Of a stretch of 64,000 bases of DNA, positions 35,202 to 59,498 are shown piece by piece. This stretch comes from an uncultured Solirubrobacterales bacterium. GTDB taxonomy: Bacteria > Actinomycetota > Thermoleophilia > Solirubrobacterales > Thermoleophilaceae. A program made the position numbers and the translations under genes. The notes under the pieces were generated by a model. That model was not told the DNA's origin and did no database searches. It was given only the letters and a program-made list of their open reading frames with translations. The stretch covers positions 422,731-486,730 of the forward strand of contig OY970313.1 of assembly GCA_963716445.1 (NCBI GenBank), in the 5' to 3' direction. Position 1 is the stretch's first letter; each line of letters opens with the position of its first letter.

Positions 35202-35227
35202 ATCTGGTGAAAAAGTGGTGAAACTCG
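35202..35227 (-). promoter_or_regulatory. Two 11-bp-phased TTTCACC boxes (TTTCACCACTT TTTCACCAGAT) upstream of the DUF47 gene
   Basis: Read on the minus strand, 85-106 nt upstream of ATG 35121. Same motif family as 36069, 47385, 51521 and 59455. Confidence 0.5.
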
Positions 35228-35294
35228 TTACCAAGCGGTCTCGCGGGCGTATGCTGGCCGTGGGCCATGGCGCTGCAGCGTCGCCGCACCTCCG

Positions 35295-36059
35295 ATGATC
35301 AGCTCTCAAACAGGTCCCGTTCGGCTCGCGATCCTCGACGCCGACTCGGGCTTCGCCAGGGTGGTGACAAATCGCGCGGAGAGCGCAGGCTGGCAGCTGC
35401 GCCGTTTCGAGGCGCCCCCGCCGGTCGAGGAGTTCGCCGCGATGAAGGTCCACGCGCTGATCGTCGACTTGGCGATGCTCGGGCCGGACGCCTGGCGGTA
35501 CCTGGAGCAGGTGGCGAGTGCGGTGCCGGCACTGGGGATCGTCGTCGCGACCGGCCGATCCAGCGTCGCCCAGCGCGTTCGCGGGCTCAGGGCCGGTGCC
35601 GACGACTGGATGACCAAGCCCTGCCATCCCGAAGAGGTCCTGGCGCGGGTGGAAGCCGTCGTGCGCAGGCGCCAGGCAAACGACCGTCTCGCGGCCGAGC
35701 CGATTGCGGCCGGCGAGCTCGAGATACGCGCCGATCACTTCCAGGCGTTCGTCGACGGGCGCGGCGTCGACCTCACCCGCCGCGAGTTCGAGGTGCTGCA
35801 GCTGCTGGCCTCGGCGAAGGGCAAGGTACTCCAGCGCGAGGAGATCTACCAGCAGGGCTGGGGCTACTCGATGGCCCACGGCGACCGCTCGGTCGACGTC
35901 TTCGTGCGCAAGCTCCGACACAAGCTCCAGGTCGCCTCGCCGTCCTGGCGCTACATCCACACCCACTTCGGCGTGGGCTACCGGTTCGAGCCCGAGCCCA
36001 TCCCCTCAGGCGACGAGCCGATCGACGAGCCGTCCGAGCCGGCCGCATCGCCCGCGTGA
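35295..36059 (+). CDS. OmpR/PhoB-family response regulator (receiver plus winged helix), no adjacent kinase
   Basis: Receiver residues (ILDAD, IVDLAM, VVATG, TKP) and a Trans_reg_C domain (LTRREFEVLQLL...RSVDVFVRKLRHKL...IHTHFGVGYRF). Confidence 0.85.
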   Translation: MISSQTGPVRLAILDADSGFARVVTNRAESAGWQLRRFEAPPPVEEFAAMKVHALIVDLAMLGPDAWRYLEQVASAVPALGIVVATGRSSVAQRVRGLRAGADDWMTKPCHPEEVLARVEAVVRRRQANDRLAAEPIAAGELEIRADHFQAFVDGRGVDLTRREFEVLQLLASAKGKVLQREEIYQQGWGYSMAHGDRSVDVFVRKLRHKLQVASPSWRYIHTHFGVGYRFEPEPIPSGDEPIDEPSEPAASPA

Positions 36060-36068
36060 GCTCTGCTC

Positions 36069-36112
36069 GTTATCCAGATCTTCTCCAACTCGACACAAGC
36101 GATTCACCGACG
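36069..36112 (+). promoter_or_regulatory. Four 11-bp-phased boxes GTTATCCAGAT CTTCTCCAACT CGACACAAGCG ATTCACCGACG upstream of the stand-alone wHTH gene
   Basis: 31-74 nt upstream of ATG 36143. Shares CCAGAT, CTTCTCC and TTCACC with the other arrays. Confidence 0.5.
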
Positions 36113-36142: not shown

Positions 36143-36487
36143 ATGCTTGCCCTGCCGCCGACATCGCGGCCCTCGGACGAGGAAGTCCGGATCGAGAACG
36201 TCGATATCCGACCTGCGGAGCTGCAGGTGCTGATCGACGGACGGCGAGCCGGCCTCACCGTGCGCGAGTTCGAGCTCTTCTACGTGCTCGCGCAGCGGCT
36301 CGACCGCGTCGTGCAGCGCGAGGACATCTACCAGCTCGTCTGGGGCGGCAAGATGCCGCGGCGCGATCGCTCGGTGGACGTGCTGGTGCGCAAGGTGCGG
36401 CACAAGCTCGAGCTCGCCGCACCCGAGTGGGCGTACATCCACACCCACTTCGGCATCGGCTACCGCTTCGCGCCCGAGCGGCGCTAG
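36143..36487 (+). CDS. Stand-alone OmpR-type winged-helix DNA-binding protein (no receiver domain)
   Basis: LTVREFELFYVLAQ...RSVDVLVRKVRHKLE...IHTHFGIGYRF, about 60% identical by eye to the C-terminal domain of 35295..36059. Confidence 0.75.
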   Translation: MLALPPTSRPSDEEVRIENVDIRPAELQVLIDGRRAGLTVREFELFYVLAQRLDRVVQREDIYQLVWGGKMPRRDRSVDVLVRKVRHKLELAAPEWAYIHTHFGIGYRFAPERR

Positions 36488-36562: not shown

Positions 36563-37345
36563 TCACTCGAACGACCCCGCGTTGCCCTGTGCCTTGTTGA
36601 AGGCACAGCGGAACAGCTCGGGCTGGCCGACGGGCTTGCCGCCCGCGAAGCCACCGCGGTCGCCGTTGTCGTAGACGGTGACGTAGTGGAGCGTCTCCGG
36701 CGACGGGTTGGCCGGCACAGGCGCCGGGTCGGGCTCCCCGGCGCGCGGGTCGCCGCGCGAGAGATCGCTCACACCCTGCGAGCCGGCGGCGCGGGCCCCC
36801 GACGCGGTGGTCGTCAGCGTGGCGCTCATCTCGCGGCGGTCCTCGAGCCCGTCCGTCGGGTCGACGTCGGTAGACGCGGTCACCTCGTTGTCATCGACGC
36901 GCCCGGCGAGCTTCACGCGTGGCGCCGCACCGATCAGCTGCGCGGCGGTCGGCAGGTAGCCGCCTAGCTCCGTGCACGCTTGGGTGGCGAAGAAGTAGTC
37001 GTTCTTGCCGATGTCGCCGCCCACCACGGGGTAGGGGCTGGTCATCAGGCAGACCGTTCCGAGGTCGACCGTCTCGGGCGCGCAGCGGTCCAGCAATGCC
37101 CGCGCGCGGCGGCCGCCGACGCGGTCGGCGTTGCGGGCGCGACGCACCTTCGGGATCGCCGCCGCCGGGAACCTCGCGCGGGCGTCGAGGCGCAGCAGGC
37201 CGAACTTCCGCGGCTTCAGGCTCGGCCCCGGCAGCGACCGGTTCTTGGCCGCGTCGGACTCGGCCGTGGTGGAGAGGACGACCGCGACGAGGGCCACGAA
37301 CAGCGCCGAGCAGGCGAGCAGGCTCGAGAGGCGGGGGTTCGTCAT
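36563..37345 (-). CDS. Membrane-anchored or secreted protein, last gene of the giant operon (C-type-lectin/DUF1566-like segment, weak call)
   Basis: ATG 37345 follows AAGGAG and overlaps the upstream stop (ATGA). TM segment MTNPRLSSLLACSALFVALVAVVL, then YFFATQACTELGGYLPTAAQL. Confidence 0.65.
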   Translation of the reverse strand: MTNPRLSSLLACSALFVALVAVVLSTTAESDAAKNRSLPGPSLKPRKFGLLRLDARARFPAAAIPKVRRARNADRVGGRRARALLDRCAPETVDLGTVCLMTSPYPVVGGDIGKNDYFFATQACTELGGYLPTAAQLIGAAPRVKLAGRVDDNEVTASTDVDPTDGLEDRREMSATLTTTASGARAAGSQGVSDLSRGDPRAGEPDPAPVPANPSPETLHYVTVYDNGDRGGFAGGKPVGQPELFRCAFNKAQGNAGSFE

Positions 37346-40300
37346 TGCGGGCTCCTTTGGTGTCGGTCGGTACGGATGAAGGCTGGTGCGGGGGCGCGGC
37401 GACTGCGGGCGCCGGGCCCGCCGCGAACCGATGCGCCGGCCACTGCGGCGAGCAGGACGAGCGCGAGCAGGTACGGCGGCACGGTCAGGCCGCCCTCCTC
37501 GGACGCGTAGCGCGAGAACGCATGCGACTCCTCGATCGCCGCCTCCTCCTCGCGTTTCTCCTCGACCTGATAGGTCCGCGCCGGCGCGCCGCCTGGCGGC
37601 AGCGGCCGCACGATCGGCGGTGGCGGGGGCGGGGGGATCGCGGGCACGGAGGACGCGGCGCCGGCGGCGAGCGGCACGAACGGGGCGGCGGCGACGGCCT
37701 GCGGCGGCGGCGACGGCGCCAGCGACGGAGAGTTGGGCGCCGGCGGCGTCAGTGGCGGCGGCTCGAAGCTCGGCGGCGGCCCGCCGCCCGCCGGTGCCGG
37801 CCCCGGCGGAGCCGCGGGCGGCGCGGTCGGTGGCGGCGCCGGGCGCTCGAAGCGGTCGGGGCGCAGCGGACGGGTGCCGCATGGGCGCTGGACGCTGCCG
37901 TCGAGGACCGTGACGCGCTCCGAGTACGAGAAGCCTCCGGCGCTGATCGTCACGGTCGTCGTGCCGGCGTTGAAGGGGCACAGCAGCCCCGATGCGCCGG
38001 CGCTGACGACCTTGTCGTCGGGTCCGATCAGCGGCTTGCGCAGATTCGTCGAGTTGGGGTCCTGGGCGACGAAGTCGGCGATGTCGGGGTCGGAGGAGGT
38101 GAAGCGATACTCGGGCGAGATACGCGTCGAGCAGCCGGAGACCGTGCACTGCTCGGGCGGGAAGGCCGTGTAGGGGTCGCCGCCCGACGGATCCGGGTTG
38201 CCAGAGCCGGCGGATGCGCGTCCCCAGCGGTCGCCACCGCGTGGCCGGCGACCGAGGCCGCGAAAGAGCGCAGGCCGCGAGCGGCGGAGCAGCGTGCCGT
38301 CGGTCGCCTCCAGCGACAGGTCCTCGATCACCGGGATCAGCCGCGCAGTCACCGGTGCCCGATTGGTCGCCGGGTCGCGCTGATGGGCGTGCACCTCGAG
38401 CAGCAGCACGCCGCTGTCGCCGAACAGCGAGTCGGGCGAGTCGATCCCGATGACGCTCGCGACGGGCGAGCGGTAGCCGAGCGTGCCGGTGCCGAAGCTG
38501 GGGATCGTCTCCGCGGCGCCGGCGGGCACGCGCGTGAAGCGGTTCTCCTCCGGACGGTCGTAGACGTAGGCCGAGACGCCCTTCTCGACCAGCAGCCGCG
38601 CGACGACGTCGCCGTCGCTTGCGACGTTGAGCTTCGGCGTGAAGTGGCTGTTGAGGTCGCGGTTGCCCATCACGACGACCGGCACGCCGTCGGCCCGCGC
38701 GTCATCGAGGACCGCCGCCAGCCAGGGCAGCTGCGACTCGTCAGGGTTCTGGTGGGCGTCGCTGGCCGCGAGCGAGCCGCGCGAGTTGTCGATCACGACC
38801 ACACGCACCCGGCCGCCGGGGCCGTCGCCGTCGAACGCGTAGTGGGTGCGCGCACCGGCGCCGGGGGCGGCGCCGGGAATGCCGTCGTTCGAGATGCCGG
38901 TGGGTGGCGACGCGCCGCCGAGCGGCGCGGGGAACGCCGAGAACGAGCCCTTGAACGCCGGCGCCCCGAGCGGCGAGGCAGCGTCGCTCGAGCCGAGGGC
39001 GGGGAACACCGGCAACGCCGGCTGCGAGGCGAGCAGCGAGGCGAGGCGCAGCCCGTCGCCGGAGCCGAGGCCCGTGCGGACGCGGTTGCCCGTGTAGAGC
39101 AGCGCGCGCGGCCCGTCGCCGCCGCGCATGCTCGCGACCGTGCGCAGGGCCGCGGCGAGGGTGCGGTCCGGCCCGATCGACTGTGGCGCGAGATCCGTGC
39201 ACGGACCGTCGCACTGAGCGTGTCCGGCGACCGCGAGCCGCGCCGGGCCGGCGGGCATCGGAACCGGCGCGGTGCCGGCGGCGTCCGGGGGCGTGGCGGC
39301 ATCGCCGTAGCGGTAGATCCCAGCCGTCCGCACCCGGCTACGGATCGCCCGCCCGCCGCCGTTGCGTGCCGAGGAGCCGCGGCCGGCGGCGTCAGCCTCG
39401 CCGCTCCAGCCGCCGATCGCCCAGCCGTTGCCGGCTGCGTCGAGCGCGAGCGCCAGCACCGGGTCGCTCTTCAAGGGCCGGTCGGCGCCCGAGCCGGCGA
39501 ACGCGGTCCGCTGCTCGTCGACCCAGCCGGAGTCGGTCTCGCGCAGCAGGTAGCCGTCGCCGGGCAGCTGGAACGGCGGGAGGATCGGTGGCGGGACCGT
39601 CGGGTCCGGCTCGGGCAGGTCGTCGGCCGGCGGATAGGAGAGCTGAGGGACGACGGAGAGGACCGCCCGGATCGGGCGGCCTGGGGCGCTCGACCGGAAC
39701 GCGGCCGCCGCGACAGCGGTGGACCCGGGCAGCGGCTGGCTCGAGAAGCGCCAGGGGGCCGTCGGGCCGTCGCGCTCGATCGCGATGTGGCGCCCGGCCG
39801 CGACGGCGCCCCCGTCGGGGAGGGCGGCGACCGCCACCAGCCGCGGACGGCCCACGCGCACGCTGTCGAGCAGCGCCCGGGCCGAGGCGTCGACGCGCCA
39901 GGCGCCGCCGTCGTTGACGAGCAGGTCGCCGCCCGCCGCGACAATCGCCTGACGTCCGGCGAAGGCGATCGAGGTCAGGTCGGCGCCCGCGAGCTCGGCG
40001 GGGAGGGGCTCGGGCTCCCAGCTCTTGCCGTAGCCGAGCAGCACGCCGCCCTTGCCGACGGCGTAGCCGCGGTCGGGGTTGCCGGGCTCGAAGGCGACGT
40101 CCATCAGGTTGCCCTCGAAGCCGATCGGGACGCCCGGGTCGGCGCTCCAGAGGCCGTCGTCGGCGTTCCATTGCCACATCGCGCCGAGGTCGCCGACGGC
40201 GTGGGCGCGCGACGGCTCCGGCCAGGCGACGCCCCGCAGCGTCGAGCGGTTGACGCTCCCGCTGGAGGAGAGCAGGAACTCGCGCCGCCAGCCGCGACCC

Positions 40301-41802
40301 GGCGCGTAGCGCGCGACGCCGCCGTCGGCGCCGACCGCCAGCGCCGGCGAGCCGAGCGAGCCCGGCGCGGCGCCCGGCGCCGTCGTCACGTCGGCGAGCG
40401 GGGCGCGCAGCGACACCGGCCACGGCCGCAGGCGGCTCGGCGCGGGCACGAACGAGACCTCGACCGGTCCCTCCAGCCACCCCTCGTCGGCGCTGGCGAA
40501 CGCCCCGCTGGGACGGAAGTTGCCGCCACCGCCAGGCATGCGGACGAATGCGCCGTCGGTCAGGCGCAGGTAGGTGCCGCGGTTGCTGTCCTCGGCCCCG
40601 CCCGGATCGAGCGGGTTGGTGACGACGCGGGCGCCGAAGCCGGGGCCGCCCCAGGCAAAGCTGCGGTAGCCGCCCTGGCGCGAGAGCCGGGCGCCGAGCG
40701 CCGCGTCGCAGGCGCTCGCGTCGCACCACTCGCGGGTCACCTGGCCCGACGCCGTGTCGTAGAAGAGCGTGACGTCGAGCTGCGCGGCGCCGATCGTCGC
40801 CGCCAGGTCGATCCAGAGCCCGCCCTCGCGGACCGTCAGCGGCTGCGCGCGGCCGCCGAGCGGCTCGACGTCCGCGATCGCGCCCGCCGGGGCGTCACGG
40901 TCGGCGAACGGCGTGCCGGCGAGCTCGCGCGCCACCCAGGTCGCGCCGCCGGAGGCCAGGGTCCGCTCGAGCAGGACGACGCTGCGGCCGAGGGCTGGAG
41001 CGGCCTCGGCGATCGCCCAGGCGTCGTCGGCGTCGGTGGCGTCGATCGCCAGGATGCGGAAGGCGCTCTCCGAGCCTGCCGGGATCTCGACCGCCTCGCG
41101 CGTCCAGTCCGTGCCGTCGAAGTGGAGGATCGCGTCCGTCACGGGGCGGCCGGTGGCCGCGACGAGGACGCCGGTGCGGTCGCCCTCGTCGAACGCGGCG
41201 ATCGCTACCCGGCCGGCGCCCTGGTCCTCGGCGATCGCCTCGGCGGGACCGTCAGGGCCCGCGGGCAGTAGGACCTCTGGGGAAGGCGGCGCGAGCGCCT
41301 GGAAGGTGTCCGCACCCGGATCACGGTGGAGCAGGACCGCCTGGCTGCCGACCGGCCGAGCCGTGTCGCGCCCGACGAGCACAGCGCCGCCACGCGCGGT
41401 GGTCCGCGCGGAGAGTGGGTTGGGCGCCGGACCGCGGTAGGGATTGCCCTGCTCGTCGAGCGGGGTCTCGTAGACCTGCCAGCCGGTCGCGTCGGTGTGG
41501 CGCAGGAAGGCGAGCTGCGGCTCGGGGCTCAGCGGGTTCGCCGGCGCCCCGAAGGGGAGTTGGCGATCGCCTGCGCGCACCGCCCCGACGCTGAGCGGGA
41601 GCTCGCGAAAGCCCCATGCCTCGCCAGGCTCCCCGCCGGGGGCGGCGCCCATCAGCGTCATGCCGGGATCGGCCGGTCCGAGGAGCGGCAGCGGCCCGAC
41701 CGGCGGGCCCGCCGTCTGGCTGCTGCCGGGCGGCGAGGCGGTCAGCACGAGCGCGAGCGCGGCGACGAGCACGCCGCCGGCCATCGGGGGCTTGCGGCTC
41801 AC
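37342..41802 (-). CDS. Giant secreted protein (1486 aa): Ycf48/BNR-like propeller blades, degenerate metallophosphoesterase-like region, Big_2-like Ig domain, Pro-rich stalk and C-terminal TM anchor
   Basis: GTG 41802 overlaps the upstream stop (GTGA) with GGAGG upstream. Signal peptide MAGGVLVAALALVLTASPP. Blade-like DVAFEPGNPDRGYAVGKGGVLLGYGKSWE, then VVVMGNRDLN, then NAGTTTVTISAGGFSYSERVTVL. Tail PPYLLALVLLAAVAGASV followed by basic residues. The upstream 416 codons of listed ORF 37342..43050 are rejected. Confidence 0.75.
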   Translation of the reverse strand: MSRKPPMAGGVLVAALALVLTASPPGSSQTAGPPVGPLPLLGPADPGMTLMGAAPGGEPGEAWGFRELPLSVGAVRAGDRQLPFGAPANPLSPEPQLAFLRHTDATGWQVYETPLDEQGNPYRGPAPNPLSARTTARGGAVLVGRDTARPVGSQAVLLHRDPGADTFQALAPPSPEVLLPAGPDGPAEAIAEDQGAGRVAIAAFDEGDRTGVLVAATGRPVTDAILHFDGTDWTREAVEIPAGSESAFRILAIDATDADDAWAIAEAAPALGRSVVLLERTLASGGATWVARELAGTPFADRDAPAGAIADVEPLGGRAQPLTVREGGLWIDLAATIGAAQLDVTLFYDTASGQVTREWCDASACDAALGARLSRQGGYRSFAWGGPGFGARVVTNPLDPGGAEDSNRGTYLRLTDGAFVRMPGGGGNFRPSGAFASADEGWLEGPVEVSFVPAPSRLRPWPVSLRAPLADVTTAPGAAPGSLGSPALAVGADGGVARYAPGRGWRREFLLSSSGSVNRSTLRGVAWPEPSRAHAVGDLGAMWQWNADDGLWSADPGVPIGFEGNLMDVAFEPGNPDRGYAVGKGGVLLGYGKSWEPEPLPAELAGADLTSIAFAGRQAIVAAGGDLLVNDGGAWRVDASARALLDSVRVGRPRLVAVAALPDGGAVAAGRHIAIERDGPTAPWRFSSQPLPGSTAVAAAAFRSSAPGRPIRAVLSVVPQLSYPPADDLPEPDPTVPPPILPPFQLPGDGYLLRETDSGWVDEQRTAFAGSGADRPLKSDPVLALALDAAGNGWAIGGWSGEADAAGRGSSARNGGGRAIRSRVRTAGIYRYGDAATPPDAAGTAPVPMPAGPARLAVAGHAQCDGPCTDLAPQSIGPDRTLAAALRTVASMRGGDGPRALLYTGNRVRTGLGSGDGLRLASLLASQPALPVFPALGSSDAASPLGAPAFKGSFSAFPAPLGGASPPTGISNDGIPGAAPGAGARTHYAFDGDGPGGRVRVVVIDNSRGSLAASDAHQNPDESQLPWLAAVLDDARADGVPVVVMGNRDLNSHFTPKLNVASDGDVVARLLVEKGVSAYVYDRPEENRFTRVPAGAAETIPSFGTGTLGYRSPVASVIGIDSPDSLFGDSGVLLLEVHAHQRDPATNRAPVTARLIPVIEDLSLEATDGTLLRRSRPALFRGLGRRPRGGDRWGRASAGSGNPDPSGGDPYTAFPPEQCTVSGCSTRISPEYRFTSSDPDIADFVAQDPNSTNLRKPLIGPDDKVVSAGASGLLCPFNAGTTTVTISAGGFSYSERVTVLDGSVQRPCGTRPLRPDRFERPAPPPTAPPAAPPGPAPAGGGPPPSFEPPPLTPPAPNSPSLAPSPPPQAVAAAPFVPLAAGAASSVPAIPPPPPPPIVRPLPPGGAPARTYQVEEKREEEAAIEESHAFSRYASEEGGLTVPPYLLALVLLAAVAGASVRGGPGARSRRAPAPAFIRTDRHQRSPQ

Positions 41803-43418
41803 CTCGCCTCCGCGACCTTGAAGGCGAGCTTGGTCGGGTAGCGCTCGCGGCTCAAGCGCAGCACGAGCTCGCGGCGGCCGGGACGGAACGTTCGCCGCGG
41901 CGTGCGCGCCACGACGCGGTTGCGGCGCTTGGCCAGCAGTTGCACCCGCGCACGCCGCGTCACGGTGAAGCTGACCGTCAGCCGCAGGCCGTCGAGCCGG
42001 GTACGGACGCGCTTGATCAGCGGCGCCAGCCGTCTCGGCGGCCTGGCCGGCGGCTCGGTGATCGGGTCGGGCTCGAGCGGCGGCGGCGCGAACAGCTGCG
42101 AGTCGTCCACGGGCGGGCGGTCCGGGATGAACTGCTCGGCCGCCTCGTTGGGCCGGAAGTCGATCGTCGTCTGGAACGCCGGATCGGTGTCGCGCGCCGG
42201 CCGCGTGCCATCGGTGTAGTGGAAGAGCCAGCCTGCCCAGGTGACCAGCCAGCAGTCGGTCGCCGACGTGCAGGCGATGCGCGCCGCCGCGCCGCGGCCA
42301 GCGCCGGCGGCTGGCAGTCGCGTGACGCTCGTCGTGCCGTCCGCCTCGATGCGAGCGACGGTTGCCTTCGAGTTGGTGCTGCGGCGCTCCCCGAAGGGCA
42401 CGACGGTCGCGAAGGCGGCGTTCGTGCCGGGGATCGCGGCGACGTCGCCGAAGCGGTCGGTCTCGCCAAGCCCCGTCTCGTCGAGCGCGATCTCCTCGAG
42501 GGCGCCGCCGGCGAGCCGCGCCGCCAGCGGTGGGCGCGGGACCGAGCCGCCCTCGGGCGCGGACGGGCCGGAGGCAGCGCCGCCGCCGACCGCCCAGAGG
42601 CTCGTCCCGTCGCTGTCGGCCGCGAGCAGCTCCGTCCCGTCGGGCGGGACGCCGTCGATCGGGACCGGCTCGAACGGGTCGTTGGCGAACGAGCCATCGG
42701 CGACGGCATGGATCAGACGCGGCGTCGGCTCGGGCTCGGCGAGGTCGACCGGCTCGCCACGCTCCTCCGGGCCGCGCCCGACGAACGTGGTCTCGTAGAC
42801 CGTGCCCGCATGAGCCTCCATGTCGCTGACCCCACGGCCCTGCGGGCCGTAGACGCTCTCGAGATCGGTCCCATCCCAGTGCAGGTGGAAGGCGCCGACG
42901 CGCTCGCCGAGCGGATCCTGGGAGCCGACGCCGCCGAACCAGCAGTCGTTCGGCCCGCTGCAGGTGGCCGAGTGCATCTGGCGGAACGGGTCGGGCGACT
43001 CGACCGCCGTGCTGTAGGAGCCGATGACCTGCCCGTCCTTGAAGCGGCACAGCGCGAGGCCCGAGCCGGCCCGCGGGCGGCTCGGCTCGCTGACCACCCA
43101 GAACTCGGTCGGCCCCGCCCAGGCGATGCGTGCGGTGTCGCCGGGTCCCCCGCAGACCGTGGCGAGCCGGCGCCAGCTCACGCCGTCGTAGCTGTAGAGG
43201 CCACGCGAGATCGTGTCGTTGCCCTCGACGGCCAGCAGCCCACGGTTCGCCGCCCAGAGCTTCAGGTCGCCGGGAGCGCCGAGCGGCACCTTGAACGGGG
43301 CGCCCGGCGGCGGCGGAGGCTGCTCGAGCCGCCAGATCGGGTCGCCGGCCTGGGCCGCCGCGGGCAGCGCCGCGACGGCGAGCGCGACGAGCGTGACGGC
43401 CTGTCGCCTCCTACTCAC
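41799..43418 (-). CDS. Secreted beta-propeller-like protein with a Pro-rich linker and basic C-terminal module
   Basis: Signal peptide [24 protein letters not shown]. Repeated blades of the form 'DCW.V...G.L.HY.DG'. The GTG overlaps the ftsH stop by 8 nt. Confidence 0.75.
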   Translation of the reverse strand: MSRRRQAVTLVALAVAALPAAAQAGDPIWRLEQPPPPPGAPFKVPLGAPGDLKLWAANRGLLAVEGNDTISRGLYSYDGVSWRRLATVCGGPGDTARIAWAGPTEFWVVSEPSRPRAGSGLALCRFKDGQVIGSYSTAVESPDPFRQMHSATCSGPNDCWFGGVGSQDPLGERVGAFHLHWDGTDLESVYGPQGRGVSDMEAHAGTVYETTFVGRGPEERGEPVDLAEPEPTPRLIHAVADGSFANDPFEPVPIDGVPPDGTELLAADSDGTSLWAVGGGAASGPSAPEGGSVPRPPLAARLAGGALEEIALDETGLGETDRFGDVAAIPGTNAAFATVVPFGERRSTNSKATVARIEADGTTSVTRLPAAGAGRGAAARIACTSATDCWLVTWAGWLFHYTDGTRPARDTDPAFQTTIDFRPNEAAEQFIPDRPPVDDSQLFAPPPLEPDPITEPPARPPRRLAPLIKRVRTRLDGLRLTVSFTVTRRARVQLLAKRRNRVVARTPRRTFRPGRRELVLRLSRERYPTKLAFKVAEAR

Positions 43419-45444
43419 TCTCCGCCTGCGTCTCGCGCGCCCGCGGCGCGTCGAGGTCGCCCTCGACGAAGGTGATCGGCGTCGGCTTGACCGTGGAGAG
43501 CACCGCGTCGAGCGCGACGCCCGAGAGCGTCTCCTGCTCGATCAGCGCCTTGGCGGTCTCCCCGACCGCTTCCCAGTTGCGGTCGAGGATCGTCTCCGCG
43601 CGGTCGACGGCCTCGCCGACGATCCGCTCCACCTCGCGGTCGATCAGCTCGAGCGTCGCCGGGCCGACGGAGCCCAGCTCCTGCAGCGACGCGCCGAGGA
43701 ACACCTCGCCGGCCTTCTCGCCGATCGTCACCGGCCCGAGCTCGGGCGACATCCCGTAGGACGTCACCATCTGGCGGGCCAGGCCGGTGGCGGCGTGGAG
43801 GTCGTCGTGGACGCCGGTCGAGACGACGCCGAACTCCAGGCGCTCGCCGGCATAGCCGGCGACGATCGCGATCAGGTGCCGGCGCATGTCCGGCTCCTGC
43901 ATCACGGTCGCGTCGCGATCGGTGAGCATGTGCGCGGCCGTGCCGAGCTGGCGCCCGCGGGCGACGATCGACAGCTTCTGCGCGGCTACCTTCTGGCCGA
44001 TCGAGCGGATCGCGACGGCGTGCGCGGCCTCGTGGATCGCGATCACCGACTTCTCGTGGCGGGTGAGGGGGTGGCTCTTGCGCGCCGGTCCCGCGACGAC
44101 GCGGTCGATCGCCTCCTCGAGCGCCGGCTGGTCCATCTCGCTGCGGCCCTCGCGCACGGTCAGCAGCGCGGCCTCGTTGATGACGTTCGCCAGCTCGGCG
44201 CCGGAGAAGCCTGAGGTGAGCTTGGCGATCTCCTCGAGCGAGGTGTCCGGCGCCAACGGCCGCTTGCCGCAATGCAGGCGCAGGATCTCGATCCGGCCGT
44301 GCACGTCGGGCACGTCGACGGTGACCTGGCGATCGAAGCGGCCCGGGCGCAGCAGCGCCGGGTCGAGGATGTCCGGCCGATTGGTCGCGGCGAGCACGAC
44401 GATGCCGGCGTCGCCCTCGAAGCCGTCCATCTCGACCAGCAGCGCGTTGAGCGTCTGCTCGCGCTCGTCGTTGCCCTGGCCGACGCCCGCGCCACGCTTG
44501 CGCCCAGCCGCGTCGAGCTCGTCGATGAAGATCAACGCCGGAGCCATCTTGCGCGCCTTCGCGAACAGGTCGCGGACGCGCGCCGCCCCGACGCCCACCA
44601 GCGACTCGACGAAGTCCGAGCCCGACAGCGAGAAGAAGGCCGCATCGGCCTCGCCGGCTGTCGCCTTGGCGAGCAGCGTCTTGCCGGTGCCGGGCGGGCC
44701 CACGAGCAGCACGCCCTTCGGCGCGCGCGCTCCCACCGATGCGTACTTCGAAGGGTCGGCGAGGTAGTCGCGGATCTCGCGCAGCTCGGCCACCGCCTCG
44801 CCCGCGCCGGCGACGTTGTCGAAGGTCGTGCGGTCGGGCGAGCTCTCGCCTCGCTTGCGCCCCTTGCCGGTGAACTTCGAGAAACCGGCGAAGGCGCCGG
44901 CGCCACCGTCCTGGCCGAGGCGCGTGAACAGCACGAACAGGCAGACGAGCAGCAGGATCGGCAGCAGGAACTGGACCAGGATCTGCTTGGCCGGCTTGTC
45001 GGCCTGCTGGTCGATCCCCACCGCCGCGCCGCTCGCCGTCAACCCCTTCAGGAGCGCCGAGGTCTGGGCGTCGGACTTCGGGTAGGCGGCGTAGAGCAGC
45101 TGGCCGCCCTTCGTGTCGACCACCACGCGGGCGTCCTGGTCGAGTAGCGTCGCGGCGTCGATGCGCTTGGCGTCGGCGAGCTCGGTGACGTCGCTGAGCG
45201 GCACCCGGTCGCCGTCCGAGCTCGGCTTGATGTCGCCGAGCAGCGCGAAGAAGAGAATCGTCAGCGCGAGCGACGCAACGAGCAGGAAAGTGTTGAGAGG
45301 GTCCTTCGCGAGCCAGCGCAGCACCGCGACGGCGCCCTCCCCGGCACGGCCTGCGACGTCGCCCAGGACACGGGCGACGTCGCGGGACTGCACCGGGGTG
45401 GGGCGCCGCGGAATGCGCCGGTCGCCGTTACCGGCGGCCGCCAC
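43411..45444 (-). CDS. ftsH: ATP-dependent zinc metalloprotease FtsH
   Basis: Two TM segments, Walker [14 protein letters not shown], Walker [13 protein letters not shown], and the HEAAHAV zinc site. Confidence 0.9.
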
Positions 45445-47311: not shown

Positions 47312-47384
47312 TGCGAGTTGTTCCTTTCCTTGACTGAACCGTTCGTCGCGAGAGTCGTCTCTATCCCTCCGGTCCGTCAAGTCA

Positions 47385-47450
47385 CTTCACGGAACTTCTA
47401 CGACGGCTTCACCATCGCTTATCCGACACTTCTCCAGATCGTCTCCAAAT
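47385..47450 (+). promoter_or_regulatory. Six phased boxes CTTCACGGAA CTTCTACGACGG CTTCACCATCG CTTATCCGACA CTTCTCCAGAT CGTCTCCAAAT in the only intergenic gap of the giant operon
   Basis: 10/12/11/11/11/11-nt units, 74-139 nt upstream of ATG 47311. Written on the + strand, so inverted relative to that gene. Confidence 0.5.
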
Positions 47451-47520
47451 GGGAACGGTGCGTTAGCGCCGGCGCCGAGCGCAACTGGTTGGGCCAACGC
47501 CCCGGAAGGGGAGAGGAGGC

Positions 47521-51431: not shown

Positions 51432-51520
51432 GGCAGCCCACCCTCACGCGCGTGAACAGCTCACTTGTAATCAACGCGCTACCGACTGGTTAAAGCGGAA
51501 CCTTCACTCGTTCGAGGCGC

Positions 51521-51575
51521 CTTCACCACTCCGTAGCCAGTTCTTATCCACACGGTCACGCGCCGTTTACCCACT
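51521..51575 (+). promoter_or_regulatory. Five 11-bp-phased boxes CTTCACCACTC CGTAGCCAGTT CTTATCCACAC GGTCACGCGCC GTTTACCCACT in the divergent pstS / giant-operon promoter region
   Basis: 69-123 nt upstream of the pstS ATG, in the same orientation as pstS. Resembles actinobacterial PHO-box direct repeats (GTTCACC-type). Confidence 0.5.
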
Positions 51576-51643: not shown

Positions 51644-52474
51644 ATGACTCGCAACCGCCCACTCGCGGTCGTGGCCGCCCTCGCCGCGTCCGCGTCGCTC
51701 GCCACCGCCACCGCCGCCACGACGGCGTCGGCGAAGTCCACGCTTACCCTGAGCGGCTCGACCTCGGTCGCCCCGCTGGTCAAGGAGCTTGCCACGGCCT
51801 TCATCGCCCAGCCGAAGTACAAGGGCAAGGTGAAGTTCGTCCTGCTCCAGGGCGGCTCGGACATCGGCATCACCGACGCCGCGCGCGGCCGCGTCACGCT
51901 CGGCATGTCCTCGCGCGATCCCAAGCCGGCCGATCCGAGCGGCATCGTCTTCAACAAGATCGCGCGCGACGCGGTCTGCGTCGTGACGAACCCGTCGAAC
52001 CCGATCCCGACGCTCAGCCAGAAGCAGATCCAGGACGTCTTCTCCGGCCGGATCCGCAACTGGAGCCAGCTGCCGGGCGCACGCGCGTCGGGCCCGATCG
52101 ACCTGGTCGTCCGCACCGCGGCCTCAGGTACCCAAGACGCGTTCCAGAACATCTTCATGGGCCAGAGCCTGCGCGTGGCCGGCAGCGCGACCACCAAGTC
52201 GTCGAACGGCCTCCAGGCCCAGGCGATCAAGTCCAACCCGAACGCGATCGGCTACGCGTCGTTCAACTTCACGAAGGGCCTCTACGACGTGCCCTACGCG
52301 GGCGTGCGCTGCAACCTGCGCAACGCCAAGTCCGGCCAATACGGCGGCGCGCGCAACTTCTTCCTGGTCAGCCGCGGCACGCCACGCGGCGCGGCGAAGG
52401 CCTTCATCCGCTTCATCCGCCGGAGTGCGACCGCCAAGCGCATCACGGCGACCAACTGGGTCCCGCTGCGTTAG
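51644..52474 (+). CDS. pstS: Phosphate ABC transporter substrate-binding protein PstS
   Basis: LSGSTSVAPLV, QGGSDIGI, ARDAV and IGYASF (PBP_like_2 pattern), with pstCAB downstream. Confidence 0.9.
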   Translation: MTRNRPLAVVAALAASASLATATAATTASAKSTLTLSGSTSVAPLVKELATAFIAQPKYKGKVKFVLLQGGSDIGITDAARGRVTLGMSSRDPKPADPSGIVFNKIARDAVCVVTNPSNPIPTLSQKQIQDVFSGRIRNWSQLPGARASGPIDLVVRTAASGTQDAFQNIFMGQSLRVAGSATTKSSNGLQAQAIKSNPNAIGYASFNFTKGLYDVPYAGVRCNLRNAKSGQYGGARNFFLVSRGTPRGAAKAFIRFIRRSATAKRITATNWVPLR

Positions 52475-53514
52475 TGGCAACCAGCGAGACCGCAATCCAC
52501 CGGCGGGGCCGCGGGGGCCCCGGCCAACCACGGTCCAGCGCCGGGCAGGGACGCTGGACCGACGACCGCGTCGAGCGCATGCTCGGCGCGGTCGCTTGCC
52601 TGGTCCTCGTTCTGATCGCCGGCATGGTGGTCTTCGTCTTCGCCAAGGCGTGGCCGTCGTTCTCCCACAACGGGCTCGCCTGGTTCGGCTCGGGCGGCGA
52701 CGTCGACCTCCAGCTCGAGGACATCCTCAACTCACCGGCCGATCCCGACGCCTACGTCTACACGCTGCGCGCCTGGCCGCTGTTGTGGGGCACGTTCGTG
52801 ATCACCGCGGGTGCGGTCGGCATCGGCCTCGTCTTCTCGCTCTTCTCGGCGATCTTCATCGTCGAGTTCGCCCCGCCTCGGGTGAACCGCGTGCTCGAGC
52901 CGGTGGTGCGCCTGCTGGCCGCCGTCCCGTCGGTGATCTACGGCCTGATCGGCATCCTCGTGGTCGTCCCCTGGGTCGCCGAGCACCTGATCGGCCAGGA
53001 GCGCAAGGAGTCGGTCGCCTATGTCGTCCAGCTCGACGGGACGGGCCTGATGGTCGGCGTCCTGATCCTGACCGTGATGATCACGCCGATCATGGTCGCG
53101 ATCGTGGTCGACGCGCTGCGCGCGGTCCCGAGCTCGTGGACGGAGGGGGCGGCCGCGCTGGGGGTCAACCGCTGGCGCGTGACCTGGACGATCGCGGTGC
53201 GGACCGCCCGACCGGCGATCGTCGCGGCGGCGGTGCTCGCGACCGCCCGCGCGCTCGGCGAGGCGATCATGCTCTCGATGGTCGCGGGCTCGGCTAGCTT
53301 CGCGCCCAACCCGTTCGACGGGCTCACCTTCTTCCTCGAGCCGACGCGGCCGCTCGCCTCCGCGCTCGTCGAGAACGTCGAGGGACTGACGGTCGAGCCG
53401 TTCGGCCAGACGCTCTACGCGTTCGCGGCGGTCCTGCTGATCTCGAGCATCTGCCTGTCGCTCGGCGGCTGGCTCGCCAAGCAGCCGATGCGCAAGTACG
53501 GGGTACGGCCGTGA
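52474..53514 (+). CDS. pstC: Phosphate ABC transporter permease PstC
   Basis: Six TM segments and the EAA-like loop ALRAVPSSWTEGAAALGVNRWRV. The GTG overlaps the pstS stop. Confidence 0.9.
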   Translation: MATSETAIHRRGRGGPGQPRSSAGQGRWTDDRVERMLGAVACLVLVLIAGMVVFVFAKAWPSFSHNGLAWFGSGGDVDLQLEDILNSPADPDAYVYTLRAWPLLWGTFVITAGAVGIGLVFSLFSAIFIVEFAPPRVNRVLEPVVRLLAAVPSVIYGLIGILVVVPWVAEHLIGQERKESVAYVVQLDGTGLMVGVLILTVMITPIMVAIVVDALRAVPSSWTEGAAALGVNRWRVTWTIAVRTARPAIVAAAVLATARALGEAIMLSMVAGSASFAPNPFDGLTFFLEPTRPLASALVENVEGLTVEPFGQTLYAFAAVLLISSICLSLGGWLAKQPMRKYGVRP

Positions 53515-54455
53515 GGGCGGTCGCCGCGGCGACCTCGCCGCGCGACAGCGTCGCGAGCTGGCCGGTCCTCGACCGGCTCGGCTACTACGCCTGCTGGGCT
53601 GCGGGCCTCGCACTGATCGCGATCGCCGGCTCGATCGTCGTATACATGCTGGTCCGCGGCGCGCAGTACTTCGACCTGGGGTCGTTCCTCGAGAGCCCGA
53701 ACGCCGACCTCGACCAGTCGAAGAGCGGCGGCATCAAGGACCCGCTGATCGGGACGCTGTTGCTCACGACGATGGCGACCGCGATCGCCGCGCCGATCGG
53801 GACCGCGATCGCCGTCTGGCTCACCGAGTACGGCCGGCCGCCGGCGCTCGCCCGCGCGGTCGAGTCGGGGATCGAGGTGGTCGCCGGTACGCCGAGCATC
53901 GTGCTCGCGATCTTCGGCCTGCTCGTCTTCCAGCAGCACGCGCTCGCGTTCTTCTCGTTCGAGGCCGAGGGCGACGCGGTCTTCGGCCGGTCGTTCTTCG
54001 CCGCCTCGGCGATGATGTCGCTGATCGCGCTGCCGCTGGTGGTGGGAGCGACGCGTGAGGCGCTGCAGGCGATACCGGGCCACGTGCGTGAGGCCTCCTA
54101 TGCGCTGGGCAAGACCAAGGCCGCGACGATCCGGCGCGTGCTGCTACCGGCTGCCCGGCCGGGCATCGGCACCGGCGCCGCGCTCGGCATGGGCCGTGTC
54201 GCCGGCGACACGGCGATCGTCGTCGTCCTGCTCGGCGCGACGCTGCAGATCCAGGCGAGCGAGGGCTTCCTCGGGTTGTTCAAGGGCACCGGCAGCACGC
54301 TGACGAGCTACGTCTTCTTCAACTCTCCGGCGGGCGAGGGCAACGCGCCGGAGAAGGCGTACTTCGCGGCCTTCGTGCTGCTCGTCCTCGTCGTGATCCT
54401 CAACTTCGTCGTCACGCGGATCGCGCGTGGAAGGAGCGTGGCATGGACTCGATGA
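53511..54455 (+). CDS. pstA: Phosphate ABC transporter permease PstA
   Basis: ALQAIPGHVREASYALGKTKAATIRRVLLPAARPGI. GTGA overlap with pstC. Confidence 0.9.
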   Translation: MRAVAAATSPRDSVASWPVLDRLGYYACWAAGLALIAIAGSIVVYMLVRGAQYFDLGSFLESPNADLDQSKSGGIKDPLIGTLLLTTMATAIAAPIGTAIAVWLTEYGRPPALARAVESGIEVVAGTPSIVLAIFGLLVFQQHALAFFSFEAEGDAVFGRSFFAASAMMSLIALPLVVGATREALQAIPGHVREASYALGKTKAATIRRVLLPAARPGIGTGAALGMGRVAGDTAIVVVLLGATLQIQASEGFLGLFKGTGSTLTSYVFFNSPAGEGNAPEKAYFAAFVLLVLVVILNFVVTRIARGRSVAWTR

Positions 54456-55393
54456 CGCCCGACCGGTTCCGCGACGAGCGCGACGTGATCCTCGCGCCGC
54501 CGCCGCCGGTGCGGCGGATCGTCGTCGAGCGCGAGCCGACGGTCGTCGACCCGCCGCCTCCGGGCATGCGCCCCCGGCCGCAGCAGACCGGCATCGCCTC
54601 GACGGTCGTCCGCCGTCCCGAGCCCAGCACCGCGCCGAAGGTCGAGCGCATGCGCGCCGACGACGTCCGCATCGCCTACGGGGACAAGGAGGCGGTTTGC
54701 GGCGTGACGATCCCCGTTCGCCAGGGCGAGGTGCTTGCGTTGATCGGCCCCTCGGGCTGCGGCAAGACGACGCTGCTGCGCTCGTTCAACCGGTTGGTGG
54801 AGATCACGCCGACCGCCACCCGCACGGGCGTGATCTCGCTCGACGGCGAGGACGTCGACTCGATGGAGGTCACCGCGCTGCGCCGGAGGGTGAGCATGGT
54901 CTTCCAGCAGCCCAACCCGTTCCCGATGAGCGTGTTCGACAACGTCGCGTACGCGCTGCGCGAGCAGGGGTCGGGACGACCGGGCAAGGACGAGCTGTTG
55001 CCGGCCGTGACCGACGCGCTCCAACGCGCGGGCCTGTGGGACGAGGTCGGCGACGCGCTCGACCATCCGGCGCTGCGCCTGTCCGGCGGCCAGCAGCAGC
55101 GGCTGTGCATCGCGCGCGCGCTCGCCGCGCGTCCCGAGGTGCTGCTGCTCGACGAGCCGTGCTCGGCGCTCGACCCGCGTTCCACTCAGGTGATCGAGGA
55201 GCTGATCCTGCGGCTTCGCGACGACGTCGCCGTGGTGATCGTCACGCACAACATGCAACAGGCGTTGCGGATCGCCGACCATGTCGGCTTCATGTATCTC
55301 GGCGAGCTCGTCGAGTACGGGCCGGCCGAGCAGGTCTTCGGCGCCCCGCGCGAGGTTCGCACCCGCGAGTACGTGGGTGGTGCGTTCGGGTGA
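54443..55393 (+). CDS. pstB: Phosphate ABC transporter ATP-binding protein PstB (with a ~70-aa Pro-rich N-terminal extension)
   Basis: GPSGCGKTTLLRSFNRL, LSGGQQQRLCIARAL, LLLDEPCSALDP and VTHNMQQA. Confidence 0.9.
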   Translation: MDSMTPDRFRDERDVILAPPPPVRRIVVEREPTVVDPPPPGMRPRPQQTGIASTVVRRPEPSTAPKVERMRADDVRIAYGDKEAVCGVTIPVRQGEVLALIGPSGCGKTTLLRSFNRLVEITPTATRTGVISLDGEDVDSMEVTALRRRVSMVFQQPNPFPMSVFDNVAYALREQGSGRPGKDELLPAVTDALQRAGLWDEVGDALDHPALRLSGGQQQRLCIARALAARPEVLLLDEPCSALDPRSTQVIEELILRLRDDVAVVIVTHNMQQALRIADHVGFMYLGELVEYGPAEQVFGAPREVRTREYVGGAFG

Positions 55394-56106: not shown

Positions 56107-56113
56107 GAGAGAC

Positions 56114-57031: not shown

Positions 57032-57426
57032 GCGCGCTAGACCGAGTCAAGGACCGGCTGATGCCGACGGCGCCAGCCCCCGCAAACGGAGGCACGGCGT
57101 CCGTCGAGCGCTCCACGGTGTCGGAGAGCGAGCTCGCGCGCCGGCATGCGGCCGCGGCACGGCGGTTCGCCGAGGAGCAGTGGAACCTCGGCGGCCTCGC
57201 CTACGAGATGGCGATCCGCGACCACTTCCGCCTCGACGTCCTCCAGCGCGCCGCCGCGAAGGTGCAGGAGGCCGACGCCGAGCTCTCCAACCTCAGCCGG
57301 CTGCTCGAGCTCGAGCAGGCCGGAGCCGCGGGCGCGTGCGTGGAGTGCGGAGCCCTCTACGGCCGGGGCGCCGCTTTCTGCTCGAGCTGCGGCGTGCCGC
57401 TGGTGGAGAGCGTCCCACCGCGATGA
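57028..57426 (+). CDS. Coiled-coil protein with a C-terminal zinc ribbon
   Basis: GTG 57028 overlaps the upstream stop (GTGA). Ends ...CVECGALYGRGAAFCSSCGVPL. Confidence 0.55.
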   Translation: MSALDRVKDRLMPTAPAPANGGTASVERSTVSESELARRHAAAARRFAEEQWNLGGLAYEMAIRDHFRLDVLQRAAAKVQEADAELSNLSRLLELEQAGAAGACVECGALYGRGAAFCSSCGVPLVESVPPR

Positions 57427-59390
57427 GCCGTGTCGCGCGCCTCGAGTCCGTCCTCGCCGGCGGAACGCTGATCGCTGCGCTCGCGGTCGTGGGCACGGTT
57501 CCGGTCGAGGCGCAGGAGTCGCCAGCTCCGCCACCGCCACCAGCCGCGGTCGCGCCCGCACCGGCGAATCCGCCCGCCGACGACGTCGAGTGGGGGCCGG
57601 TCGTCGAGGAGCCCACGCCACCGCCTCCACCCGCACCGGGCGCCGGGCGCCAGCAGGCACGCGGGGGAGACGACCGAACGCCAGTCGATCCCCCGCCATC
57701 GAGCCCGCCGCCGCCGCCGGCCTCGCCCCCGACCAACCCCGATGGCTCTCCGTCGCCGTCGAACCCGACGTACATCGACGCGCTTCCAGGCCCGGCCATG
57801 ACCCAGGGCGTCCCGAACTTCGTGATCCGCAAGTTCCGAGTGCCGCTGTTCCTACTGCCGATCTACCAGGCGGCGGGGATCGAGTACGGCATTCGCTGGG
57901 AGATCCTGGCGGCGATCAACGAGATCGAGACCGACTACGGACGCAACCTCAACGTCTCCTCCGCTGGCGCGTTGGGCTGGATGCAGTTCATGCCGGCCTC
58001 TTGGCGCGCCTATGGCGTGGATGCCAACAAGGACGGGCGCAAGGACCCCTACAACCCCGTTGACGCGATCTTCGCTGCGGCCCGCTACCTGGAGGCCGCC
58101 GACTACGAGAATGACGTCCGCGGCGCGATCTTCGCCTACAACCACGCCGACTGGTACGTCGACTCCGTGCTGCTGCGCGCCCGGCTGATCTCCGGCGTCC
58201 CCGCCGACCTCGTCGGCTCGCTCACCGGACTGACCGAGGGCCGCTTCCCGATCGCCGCACGCGCTCGCTACGCGAGCCGCGGCGAGCGCGGGGCGAAGCT
58301 CTTCGCACCCAAGGGGGCCCCAGTCGTCGCGACCGCCGATGGGATCGTCAAGGCCGTGGGACGCAGCGAGCGGCGCGGCAACTATCTGGTCCTCCAGGAC
58401 GTGTACGGCAACCGCTACACCTACGCCGGCCTCGGGAGGATCACGCTCGACGTCCCGATGGCCGAGGCGCGCACCGCTCGCGGAGCCGTCGTCCACACCA
58501 AGCAGCGGCTGTTCGCCCGCCCCGACCTCGCGTCGGAGCGCCACCAGCGCAAGCTGCAGCGGGGAATGCATCTGACCGTTGGGACCGTGATCGGTCGTGT
58601 CGGAGTGACGGAGGCCGGCAAGGCGGCACACATCGACTTCGGGATCCGTCCGGCTGGCAAGGGTGCGCCGACGATCGATCCGAAGCCGATCCTCGACGGC
58701 TGGAAGCTGCTGGAGGCGACTGCGATCTACCGCGCGGAGGGCAAGAACGTGCTCTACGGCGACGGGCCGGGCGCGGGCCTGTCGATCGGCCAGATCATGC
58801 TGCTGCCCAAGCCGCTGCTCGAGAAGCGCGTGCTTGGCGACGAGCGGATAGACATCTACGAGGGCGGTCGCCAGGACGTCAAGGCGGGTCAGATCGACCG
58901 GCGCGTGCTCGCGACGATCGCCTACCTCGCCGAGTCCGGGCTGCGGCCGACGGTCACCTCGCTGAAGGCCGGCCATGGCTACCTGACCGCTTCGGGCAAC
59001 GTCTCCCACCACTCCTCGGGCAACGCAGTGGACGTCGCGGCGATCAACGGCGTGCCGATCCTCGGACACCAGGAGCCCGGAGGGGTGACCGACCAGGCCG
59101 TCCGGAGGCTGATGCGCCTCCAAGGCACGATGCGCCCCGACCAGATCATCAGCCTCCTGGACTACGGCCAGAACACGATCGCGATGGGCGACCACCACGA
59201 CCACATCCACGTCGGCTTCCAGCCGCTCTTCGGCGCCAACTTCGAGCTCGGCCGCCAGGCGATGGCAGCCCTCGAGCCCGGCCAGTGGTCCGACCTGATC
59301 GCGCGCCTGCGCGAGATCGACAACCCGGTCGTCCCCACCGAGCCGTCCAAGCACTCGCTGCCGGCGCGTACTCAGCGTCGCGAGCGGTAG
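57423..59390 (+). CDS. Secreted multidomain cell-wall hydrolase: SLT-type lytic transglycosylase, degenerate LytM/M23-like domain and LAS (VanY/M15-like) metallopeptidase
   Basis: ATG 57423 overlaps the upstream stop (ATGA), with a signal peptide. SLT: WEILAAINEIETDYG...GALGWMQFMPASW. LytM-like: GAPVVATADGIVK...YTYAGLG...HIDFGI. LAS: SHHSSGNAVDV...DHHDHIHVGF. Confidence 0.8.
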   Translation: MSRVARLESVLAGGTLIAALAVVGTVPVEAQESPAPPPPPAAVAPAPANPPADDVEWGPVVEEPTPPPPPAPGAGRQQARGGDDRTPVDPPPSSPPPPPASPPTNPDGSPSPSNPTYIDALPGPAMTQGVPNFVIRKFRVPLFLLPIYQAAGIEYGIRWEILAAINEIETDYGRNLNVSSAGALGWMQFMPASWRAYGVDANKDGRKDPYNPVDAIFAAARYLEAADYENDVRGAIFAYNHADWYVDSVLLRARLISGVPADLVGSLTGLTEGRFPIAARARYASRGERGAKLFAPKGAPVVATADGIVKAVGRSERRGNYLVLQDVYGNRYTYAGLGRITLDVPMAEARTARGAVVHTKQRLFARPDLASERHQRKLQRGMHLTVGTVIGRVGVTEAGKAAHIDFGIRPAGKGAPTIDPKPILDGWKLLEATAIYRAEGKNVLYGDGPGAGLSIGQIMLLPKPLLEKRVLGDERIDIYEGGRQDVKAGQIDRRVLATIAYLAESGLRPTVTSLKAGHGYLTASGNVSHHSSGNAVDVAAINGVPILGHQEPGGVTDQAVRRLMRLQGTMRPDQIISLLDYGQNTIAMGDHHDHIHVGFQPLFGANFELGRQAMAALEPGQWSDLIARLREIDNPVVPTEPSKHSLPARTQRRER

Positions 59391-59454
59391 GTCGCGCAAC
59401 CGCGGTGCACCGGCGTCCGCCACGCAGCCGTAGCCGCGGGTCGCTTGTTGGCAA

Positions 59455-59498
59455 CTTCTCTCCAGCGTCACCTAACCGTTACCGCTCGCTAACGGTCC
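59455..59498 (+). promoter_or_regulatory. Four 11-bp-phased boxes CTTCTCTCCAG CGTCACCTAAC CGTTACCGCTC GCTAACGGTCC upstream of the PhoX-like gene
   Basis: 65-108 nt upstream of TTG 59563, in the same orientation as the gene. Confidence 0.45.

Follow-up and report, generated by a model that had tools for sequence, protein, structure and literature searches.

The 64,000-nucleotide stretch analysed here (hereafter the window; contig OY970313.1 of an uncultured Solirubrobacterales bacterium) carries short head-to-tail repeats at promoters of phosphate genes, of a gene for a stand-alone winged helix-turn-helix (wHTH) protein and of a cluster of seven genes, A to G, for predicted secreted proteins and an FtsH protease, which raises the question of whether these repeats are the operators of one regulon and which protein reads them. 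Solirubrobacterales are abundant in soil, where phosphate is often limiting, and they are almost unstudied; a literature search found no paper on phosphate regulation in this order. The sequence-only reading of this DNA had described repeat arrays at five sites, and we found all five where it had placed them and with the sequences it had given, together with a sixth that it had missed, lying back to back with the array upstream of pstS (Table 1). By the sequence-level definition of that element, the arrays are PHO boxes. Judging from sequence, we consider it probable that they serve as PHO-box-type operators of a phosphate-type regulon and that they are read by OmpR/PhoB-family domains, likely those of the regulators encoded beside them.

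The phasing of the repeats at 11 bp goes beyond chance. The core TT[CA][AT]CC has 64 matches on both strands of the 64 kb, and the only same-strand spacings of up to 45 bp between them were 11 bp (four times), 22 bp (three times) and 33 bp (once). Three hundred dinucleotide shuffles inside 100-bp blocks, which keep local composition, gave on average 0.013 pairs spaced by 11 bp and 0.027 spaced by 22 bp, with a maximum of 1 in any shuffle. Eleven of the 64 matches fall within ~330 bp of arrays, ~40 times the background density, and three of the five TTATCC words in the window are within arrays. When matrices were built with one site left out, sites 1 to 4 ranked right behind the training sites. 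Rfam matched no RNA family at any array. A weaker element at 5734-5755, which had been offered as a hint of a further site upstream of a paralogous repeat protein, was rejected: GTTCTTA is repeated there at 14 bp, not 11, and the protein encoded downstream has no BLASTP similarity to the A-G proteins. That protein, secreted and 636 aa long (5694-7604, plus strand), has no Pfam match, and a TTGACA hexamer lies upstream (5700-5760). Two genes for MFS transporters flank a weak two-unit match at 32366-32387 on the minus strand (CGTAACGATCG CTTCACATACT, 13 bits), which is at chance level.

The sequence-only reading had staked the regulon on conservation of the arrays upstream of orthologues, and they are indeed present at pstS, wHTH, A and C across ~40 genomes. 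Our comparison set comprised 50 loci with a C orthologue, each with 10-kb flanks, from a scan of species-representative genomes (54 loci were inspected overall, ~15-22 kb each). The C homologues are labelled Solirubrobacterales by their sources; the order A-B-C-D-E-F-G is kept in nearly all 50 loci, and the synteny spans Thermoleophilaceae, Conexibacteraceae-like genomes and one Ilumatobacteraceae metagenome-assembled genome. Across the 50 loci, the distances between cores peak at 11, 22, 33, 44/45 and 54/55 bp, counts that are not phylogenetically independent. A matrix built from the window units alone was applied, on both strands, to the 38 independent loci that measure 15 kb or more. Its top-scoring phased array of three units preceded C, wHTH/pstS or A in 36 of them; in the other two, the most distant ones, it preceded ftsH. 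Mean pairwise identity within the C array is 74%, compared with 39% in the spacer beyond it (35 genomes); the same alignment reads CTGTCAAGccG cTTCACAGGAC TTCTACG.... cgTTACAtg.c GTTATCAa..G over the first units and cgTcaCCAgAT CGTCaCCAgt. ggTgAC..... gTTCACttccg over the later ones. Site 4 is conserved in 26 genomes and site 2 is kept in 23, nearly identical in two contigs (L051 and L052) of a set of four, L051-L054, that carry homologues of the local response regulator; the layout of site 1, units followed by CATAACGG, recurs in the regulator/wHTH2-pstS promoters of L052-L054. The A array (consensus tTaACCActt gGTagCgcc.t.gTtACAtCtc tGacacg in 38 genomes) is retained even in genomes without a neighbouring pstS. 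None of the other conserved arrays is as weak, and its stretch TAACCActtGGTA comes close to a palindrome, a feature that may reflect a second factor there. Position by position along the unit of the C array, the information content is 1.35, 1.61, 1.85, 1.36, 1.66, 1.96, 1.43, 1.13, 0.68, 0.94 and 0.98 bits, high at positions 1-7 and low at 9-11, so that the unit consists of a 7-bp core and a 4-bp spacer; core variants are TTCACC, GTTCAC, GTTAC and GTCACC.

The arrays have also travelled with their genes. In most genomes, wHTH and G are transcribed toward each other and wHTH and pstS away from each other, and the shared wHTH/pstS spacer holds site 2 directed toward wHTH and site 4 directed toward pstS; in the window the same two arrays are 15 kb apart, at opposite ends of the cluster, and therefore must have moved with the genes they precede. 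Two Conexibacteraceae-like genomes have a flipped C array (L030, ~9790-9900; L037, ~9790-9890), in which unit order is unchanged but directed toward C and the B-C spacer is much shorter. In the most distant genomes, L033, L045 and L047 (~12150-12300), a strong reversed array, GTTCACCATTC GTTCACCAGTC GTTCACCGAAC and further units, lies directly upstream of ftsH, behind a G+C-rich hairpin that follows gene C; this position suggests that ftsH itself is a direct target in these three genomes.

Table 1. Repeat arrays and genes of the window (positions in the window; strand relative to the sequence as given).
Feature	Position	Strand	Details
Site 1	35191..35223	-	TTTCACCACTT TTTCACCAGAT and a degenerate third unit GGCTACACGCG, then CATAAC
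Site 2	36069..36112	+	GTTATCCAGAT CTTCTCCAACT CGACACAAGCG ATTCACCGACG; ends 30 nt before the wHTH start codon
Site 3	47374..47472	+	~9 phased units in the B-C spacer, on the non-coding strand of C
Sixth array	51451..51494	-	TTTAACCAGTC GGTAGCGCGTT GATTACAAGTG AGCTGTTCACG; upstream of A, on the coding strand of A
Site 4	51521..51575	+	CTTCACCACTC CGTAGCCAGTT CTTATCCACAC GGTCACGCGCC GTTTACCCACT; upstream of pstS
Site 5	59455..59498	+	CTTCTCTCCAG CGTCACCTAAC CGTTACCGCTC (GCTAACGGTCC); upstream of the PhoX-like gene
DUF47/PhoU_div gene	34495..35121	-	True start ATG 35121, with a GAGGAG ribosome-binding site ahead of it
OmpR-family response regulator	35295..36059	+	No adjacent kinase
wHTH1, stand-alone OmpR/PhoB-type DNA-binding domain protein	36143..36487	+	114 aa, no receiver domain
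Gene G, small secreted or membrane protein	36563..37345	-	No family match
Gene F	37342..41784	-	~1480 aa
Gene E, secreted protein	41799..43418	-	539 aa; no family or solved-structure match
Gene D, FtsH protease	43411..45444	-	640 bits vs TIGR01241 cut-off of 600
Gene C, secreted PstS-like binding protein	45428..47311	-	C-terminal beta-sandwich extension; true start ATG 47311
Gene B, secreted PD40 (TolB-like) beta-propeller protein	47521..49521	-	
Gene A, secreted protein	49518..51431	-	PKD/Ig-like domain
pstS-pstC-pstA-pstB phosphate ABC transporter	51644..55393	+	
Zinc-ribbon protein, SLT/M23 protein	3' of pstB		
PhoX-like alkaline phosphatase gene	59563..61173	+	

Gene calls in this window of ~70% G+C were made from third-position G+C phase together with Pfam and NCBIfam, and they bear on how the cluster is transcribed. 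The cluster had been taken as a single operon of 15 kb, which the map does not support. Genes C to G overlap or nearly touch, as do A and B, and between B and C lie 210 bp that contain an array and promoter-like elements of their own; we therefore distinguish two transcription units, A-B and C-G, each with an array of its own. The array in that spacer, earlier described as six units at 47385-47450, is present but longer (~9 units), and its unit closest to C overlaps a -35-like TTGAC(G/A) hexamer. Alignments place a conserved -10-like hexamer 16 nt past the last unit at pstS (GAGACT), wHTH (A(A/G)GGGT) and A (GAACGT), a distance that would put the last unit over the -35 region, and this geometry is tentatively that of activator-dependent pho promoters. 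At the C promoter it is the long reversed array that abuts the -35-like hexamer, TTGAC(A/G). Terminator scans at sites 3 and 4 detected none. Site 1 sits in the divergent promoter between the DUF47 and response-regulator genes and is oriented toward DUF47.

The sequence-only reading had likened the repeats to the binding sites of OmpR/PhoB/PhoP regulators and to the Streptomyces PHO box, and the comparison with known systems supports this. In Streptomyces, the PhoP direct-repeat units, G(G/T)TCAYYYR(G/C)G, are 11 nt long and occur as 2-8 units on either strand (PMC2275107). The arrays of the window likewise have 11-nt units with a conserved core of ~7 nt and a variable spacer, run for 2 to 9 consecutive units in which conserved cores are joined by degenerate extension units, lie on either strand, and precede pstS, phosphatase genes and a PhoU-type gene in a promoter divergent with that of the regulator gene; the GTTCAY of the Streptomyces box appears here as nTTCACC, GTTAC or GTCACC. 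Unlike in the Streptomyces PhoR-PhoP system, the regulator belongs to a distinct OmpR-family lineage, no PhoR-type kinase is adjacent, two receiver-less paralogues accompany the regulator, and the putative regulon includes the conserved seven-gene secreted-protein/FtsH cluster. To our knowledge, this cluster has no Streptomyces counterpart. The boxes of Escherichia coli PhoB and of Bacillus subtilis PhoP and WalR share with the arrays the head-to-tail repeats and the 11-bp periodicity, and in those of E. coli PhoB and B. subtilis, as here, the proximal repeat replaces or overlaps the -35 element; the TTCACA/GTTACA units presumably match the B. subtilis TT(A/T/C)ACA box. In contrast to these systems, the lineage and the details of the core are different here, the arrays are much longer (9 units), and the proteins include receiver-less versions. 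A receiver-less OmpR-type domain is known from the SARP/AfsR proteins, which compete with PhoP at PHO boxes, including those of pstS and of the regulator promoter (PMC6988585). SARPs have a BTAD domain and often ATPase/TPR domains, whereas the proteins here are bare DNA-binding domains: wHTH1 (114 aa) and its relative wHTH2 (117-126 aa) have Trans_reg_C only and no BTAD, and are thus not SARPs. The operator principle is textbook; what is new is the lineage, the content of the regulon and the set of paralogous regulators, and the advance therefore lies in regulon content and lineage and not in mechanism.

The two DNA-binding proteins encoded beside sites 1 and 2 had been proposed as the binders, and they are good candidates: linkage to pst is invariable in both families, which have one recognition helix in common. 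Both match PF00486 (Trans_reg_C) well above the cut-off of 26.2 bits (regulator, 77.7; wHTH1, 70.5), and the nearest solved structures of the stand-alone domain are the DNA-binding domains of WalR, VicR and PhoB. The regulator family is very abundant and well conserved; D15, D17, D58, T86 and K108 and the recognition helix are invariant in 20 of its members, and from these residues the receiver is of the phosphorylatable type, with acidic pocket, phospho-acceptor Asp, Thr/Ser and Lys, even though (in Pfam) it scores just 35.6 bits against a cut-off of 30.2. In all four of the L051-L054 contigs, a family member (at position 10001 in L051 and 7001 in L052-L054) is divergent from an operon that runs wHTH2, pstSCAB, phoU, PhoU_div and then CHAD, Ppx or PPK genes, and the regulator/wHTH2-pst spacer bears GTTCACAGCAT CTTCACAGCCC, oriented toward the pst operon. 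This arrangement is the canonical one for the phosphate locus in the lineage. Downstream of the regulator, these contigs have conserved genes of ~155, 465-490 and ~50 aa with no Pfam match, which could be candidates for an unrecognised sensor. Elsewhere on the 2.6-Mb contig of the window there is a 79%-identical paralogue of the regulator (P0123). The window copy is the more divergent of the two and has lost the neighbouring pst-phoU operon, keeping DUF47 alone. The bare domains (110-126 aa) are clear paralogues of the regulator's own domain, at 52% identity. All three DNA-binding domains, of the regulator, wHTH1 and wHTH2, have the helix DRSVDVxVxK[LVI]RxKLE and the wing IHTHFGxGYR, and because helix and wing are common to them, they very probably read the same type of 11-bp unit.

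Taken together, these data suggest a mechanism in which monomers of OmpR/PhoB-family domains would line up head to tail on the arrays, each on its own 11-bp unit, as Streptomyces PhoP does. The likeliest binders would be the local response-regulator family, predicted to be phosphorylatable and lacking an adjacent kinase, and its receiver-less paralogues. The regulon would consist of pstSCAB, the PhoX-like phosphatase (with a weak site), the DUF47/PhoU-like gene, the gene for the receiver-less regulator, and the units A-B and C-G; all of the array targets are phosphate-related or linked to pst. A promoter-proximal unit lying over the -35 region at pstS, wHTH and A would favor activation. We infer the identity of the binder, phosphate as the signal and activation as the outcome from this set of linked genes, operators and domains.

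Several observations weigh against this reading. The closest solved relative of the regulator is PrrA, and the regulator falls below the PhoB/PhoP equivalog cut-offs (103.5 vs 296.2 bits for TIGR02154; 114 vs 270 for NF053854). No histidine kinase adjoins it in the window or in L051-L054. Other actinobacterial regulators of the OmpR family (MtrA, GlnR, AfsQ1 and AfsR) bind similar or the same boxes (PMC6988585), so the motif alone cannot name the binder. Strict sigma-70 scans of sites 3 and 4 returned no promoter; the -10 and -35 assignments rest on alignment-conserved hexamers and are therefore tentative. D, which scores above the equivalog cut-off for FtsH, may have a housekeeping role, and this argues against strict starvation-only expression of C-G. 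The array at the PhoX-like gene (site 5) has the sequence first described for it but is marginal, ranking 10th with 12 bits when it was left out of the matrix; the phoX promoters of L002 and L034 have clear GTTCACCnnnnGTTCAC boxes, which lends the weak window site some support. Finally, the C array is reversed relative to its gene in most genomes and forward in L030 and L037. The inversion of site 3 had already been raised as a caveat, and it is no obstacle, as Streptomyces PhoP also activates from the non-coding strand. We considered array orientation as a marker of repression and ruled this out: given activation from either strand in Streptomyces and the flip of the C array in L030 and L037, orientation is uninformative on the sign of control.

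These points bear differently on the alternatives. That a canonical PhoR-PhoP pair (SenX3-RegX3-type) encoded elsewhere in the genome binds the arrays, with the local regulators being mere members of the regulon or having other targets, seems to us unlikely, although the units do resemble the Streptomyces PhoP box, the local regulator is neither a PhoB/PhoP equivalog nor next to a kinase, and our inspection covered just 64 kb of this genome. The local regulator family and the paralogues with only a DNA-binding domain are invariably pst-linked and have arrays in their own promoters, the family retains all phospho-acceptor residues, and no PhoR/PhoP pair was found in the 54 loci of ~15-22 kb each. 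We give only a slim chance to a different OmpR-family circuit, MtrA-like or concerned with the cell envelope, that is not primarily phosphate-responsive and for which pstS is a shared 'integrator' promoter. Its appeal is that the products of the cluster are FtsH and proteins that are secreted or belong to the envelope, and that the GTCACC-type units of site 3 resemble MtrA-type boxes. In Streptomyces, moreover, several such regulators share boxes at pstS (PMC6988585). Such a circuit would have to accommodate arrays that also precede phoX (in L002 and L034), DUF47/PhoU-like genes and both pst operons, linked loci that contain phoU, ppk, ppx and CHAD genes, and a cluster in which C is PstS-like and F has a phosphoesterase fold.

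It is highly improbable that the repeats lack a regulatory role and arose by chance or from the composition of AT-richer intergenic DNA. The intergenic DNA of a 70% G+C genome is enriched in T-rich words, and neither site 5 nor the 5734 element rises above chance; against this, shuffles that keep local composition never gave more than one pair at 11 bp where four were observed, the spacings are exclusively multiples of 11, and the arrays are conserved at orthologous promoters in 38 of 38 loci while the flanking spacer has diverged. A chance origin is refuted for sites 1-4 and the A array and could apply to site 5 alone.

The preferred reading, of a phosphate-type regulon served by local OmpR/PhoB-family domains, has a bolder extension that we regard as possible but doubtful as a whole: a Thermoleophilia phosphate regulon with three paralogous DNA-binding proteins and an extracytoplasmic seven-gene machine for the phosphate response. 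One phosphorylatable regulator without an adjacent kinase would act alongside two receiver-less copies made from array-controlled promoters, one as the first gene of the pstSCAB-phoU operon and the other beside the secreted-protein cluster. The bare domains might share the long operators with the regulator and either compete with it, giving negative feedback, or act as its partners in extending occupancy. The seven-gene module, as a core and hitherto unrecognised machine of this abundant soil lineage, would contribute FtsH, propeller proteins, a binding protein of PstS type and a phosphoesterase-fold protein that is probably non-catalytic.

What the cluster encodes fits a phosphate-related extracytoplasmic role without establishing one. 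All products of A-G except FtsH have signal-peptide-like N termini. Searches of Pfam, NCBIfam and solved-structure sequences, with single sequences and profiles, yielded only PKD in A, PD40 in B (matched by all B orthologues) and a Ycf48/BNR segment in F, and no match for E or G. The order of domains in F is signal peptide, Ycf48/BNR-like beta-propeller, metallophosphoesterase-like fold, proline-rich linker and C-terminal membrane anchor. A model of residues ~830-1210 (38161-39303, minus strand; predicted local distance difference test (pLDDT) score 64, predicted template modelling score 0.70) matched GAP50, Lmo2642 and Rv0805 with a Foldseek probability of 1.0 and E values of 7e-8 to 1e-6, and it also resembles the calcineurin-like metallophosphoesterases Mre11 and UshA. 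Pfam Metallophos has no match in F, and the usual metal-ligand motifs (DxH, GDxxD, GNH[DE] and GHxH), as read from the alignment consensus, are apparently not conserved; because of this, the domain may be non-catalytic, a possible pseudo-phosphoesterase in a 1480-aa membrane-anchored surface protein. The model of C from a 15-sequence alignment was poor (pLDDT 50), confident for the C-terminal beta-sandwich alone. C retains the motifs GASF, GSG and RxxxSGT, which may correspond to the phosphate site of PstS.

These results provide a testable operator model, with a unit consensus, six mapped sites and conservation in ~40 genomes, and a first lead on the function of a conserved cluster, encoding large secreted proteins, that adjoins pst genes in every genome examined. 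The regulator family and its receiver-less paralogues could offer a simple natural system for the study of competition or cooperation between OmpR domains on long operators.

Around the phosphate genes of the window, a search for phoU downstream of pstB and for a Pit gene downstream of DUF47 showed both to be absent. An unannotated gene of ~230 aa with no Pfam match (55400-56106, plus strand) occupies the place expected for phoU, and the zinc-ribbon gene that follows (56114-57031, plus strand) is syntenic with pstB across many related loci. Farther out, the window holds a gene for an ECF-type (extracytoplasmic function) sigma factor with a long C-terminal extension (2806-4287, minus strand), a SpoIIE-type phosphatase gene (4548-5693, plus strand), a Ppx/GppA gene with a TetR regulator (10677-12413, minus strand), a NarL-type two-component pair (61942-63999, minus strand), and tRNA genes at 4450-4534 (minus strand) and 12432-12505 (plus strand).

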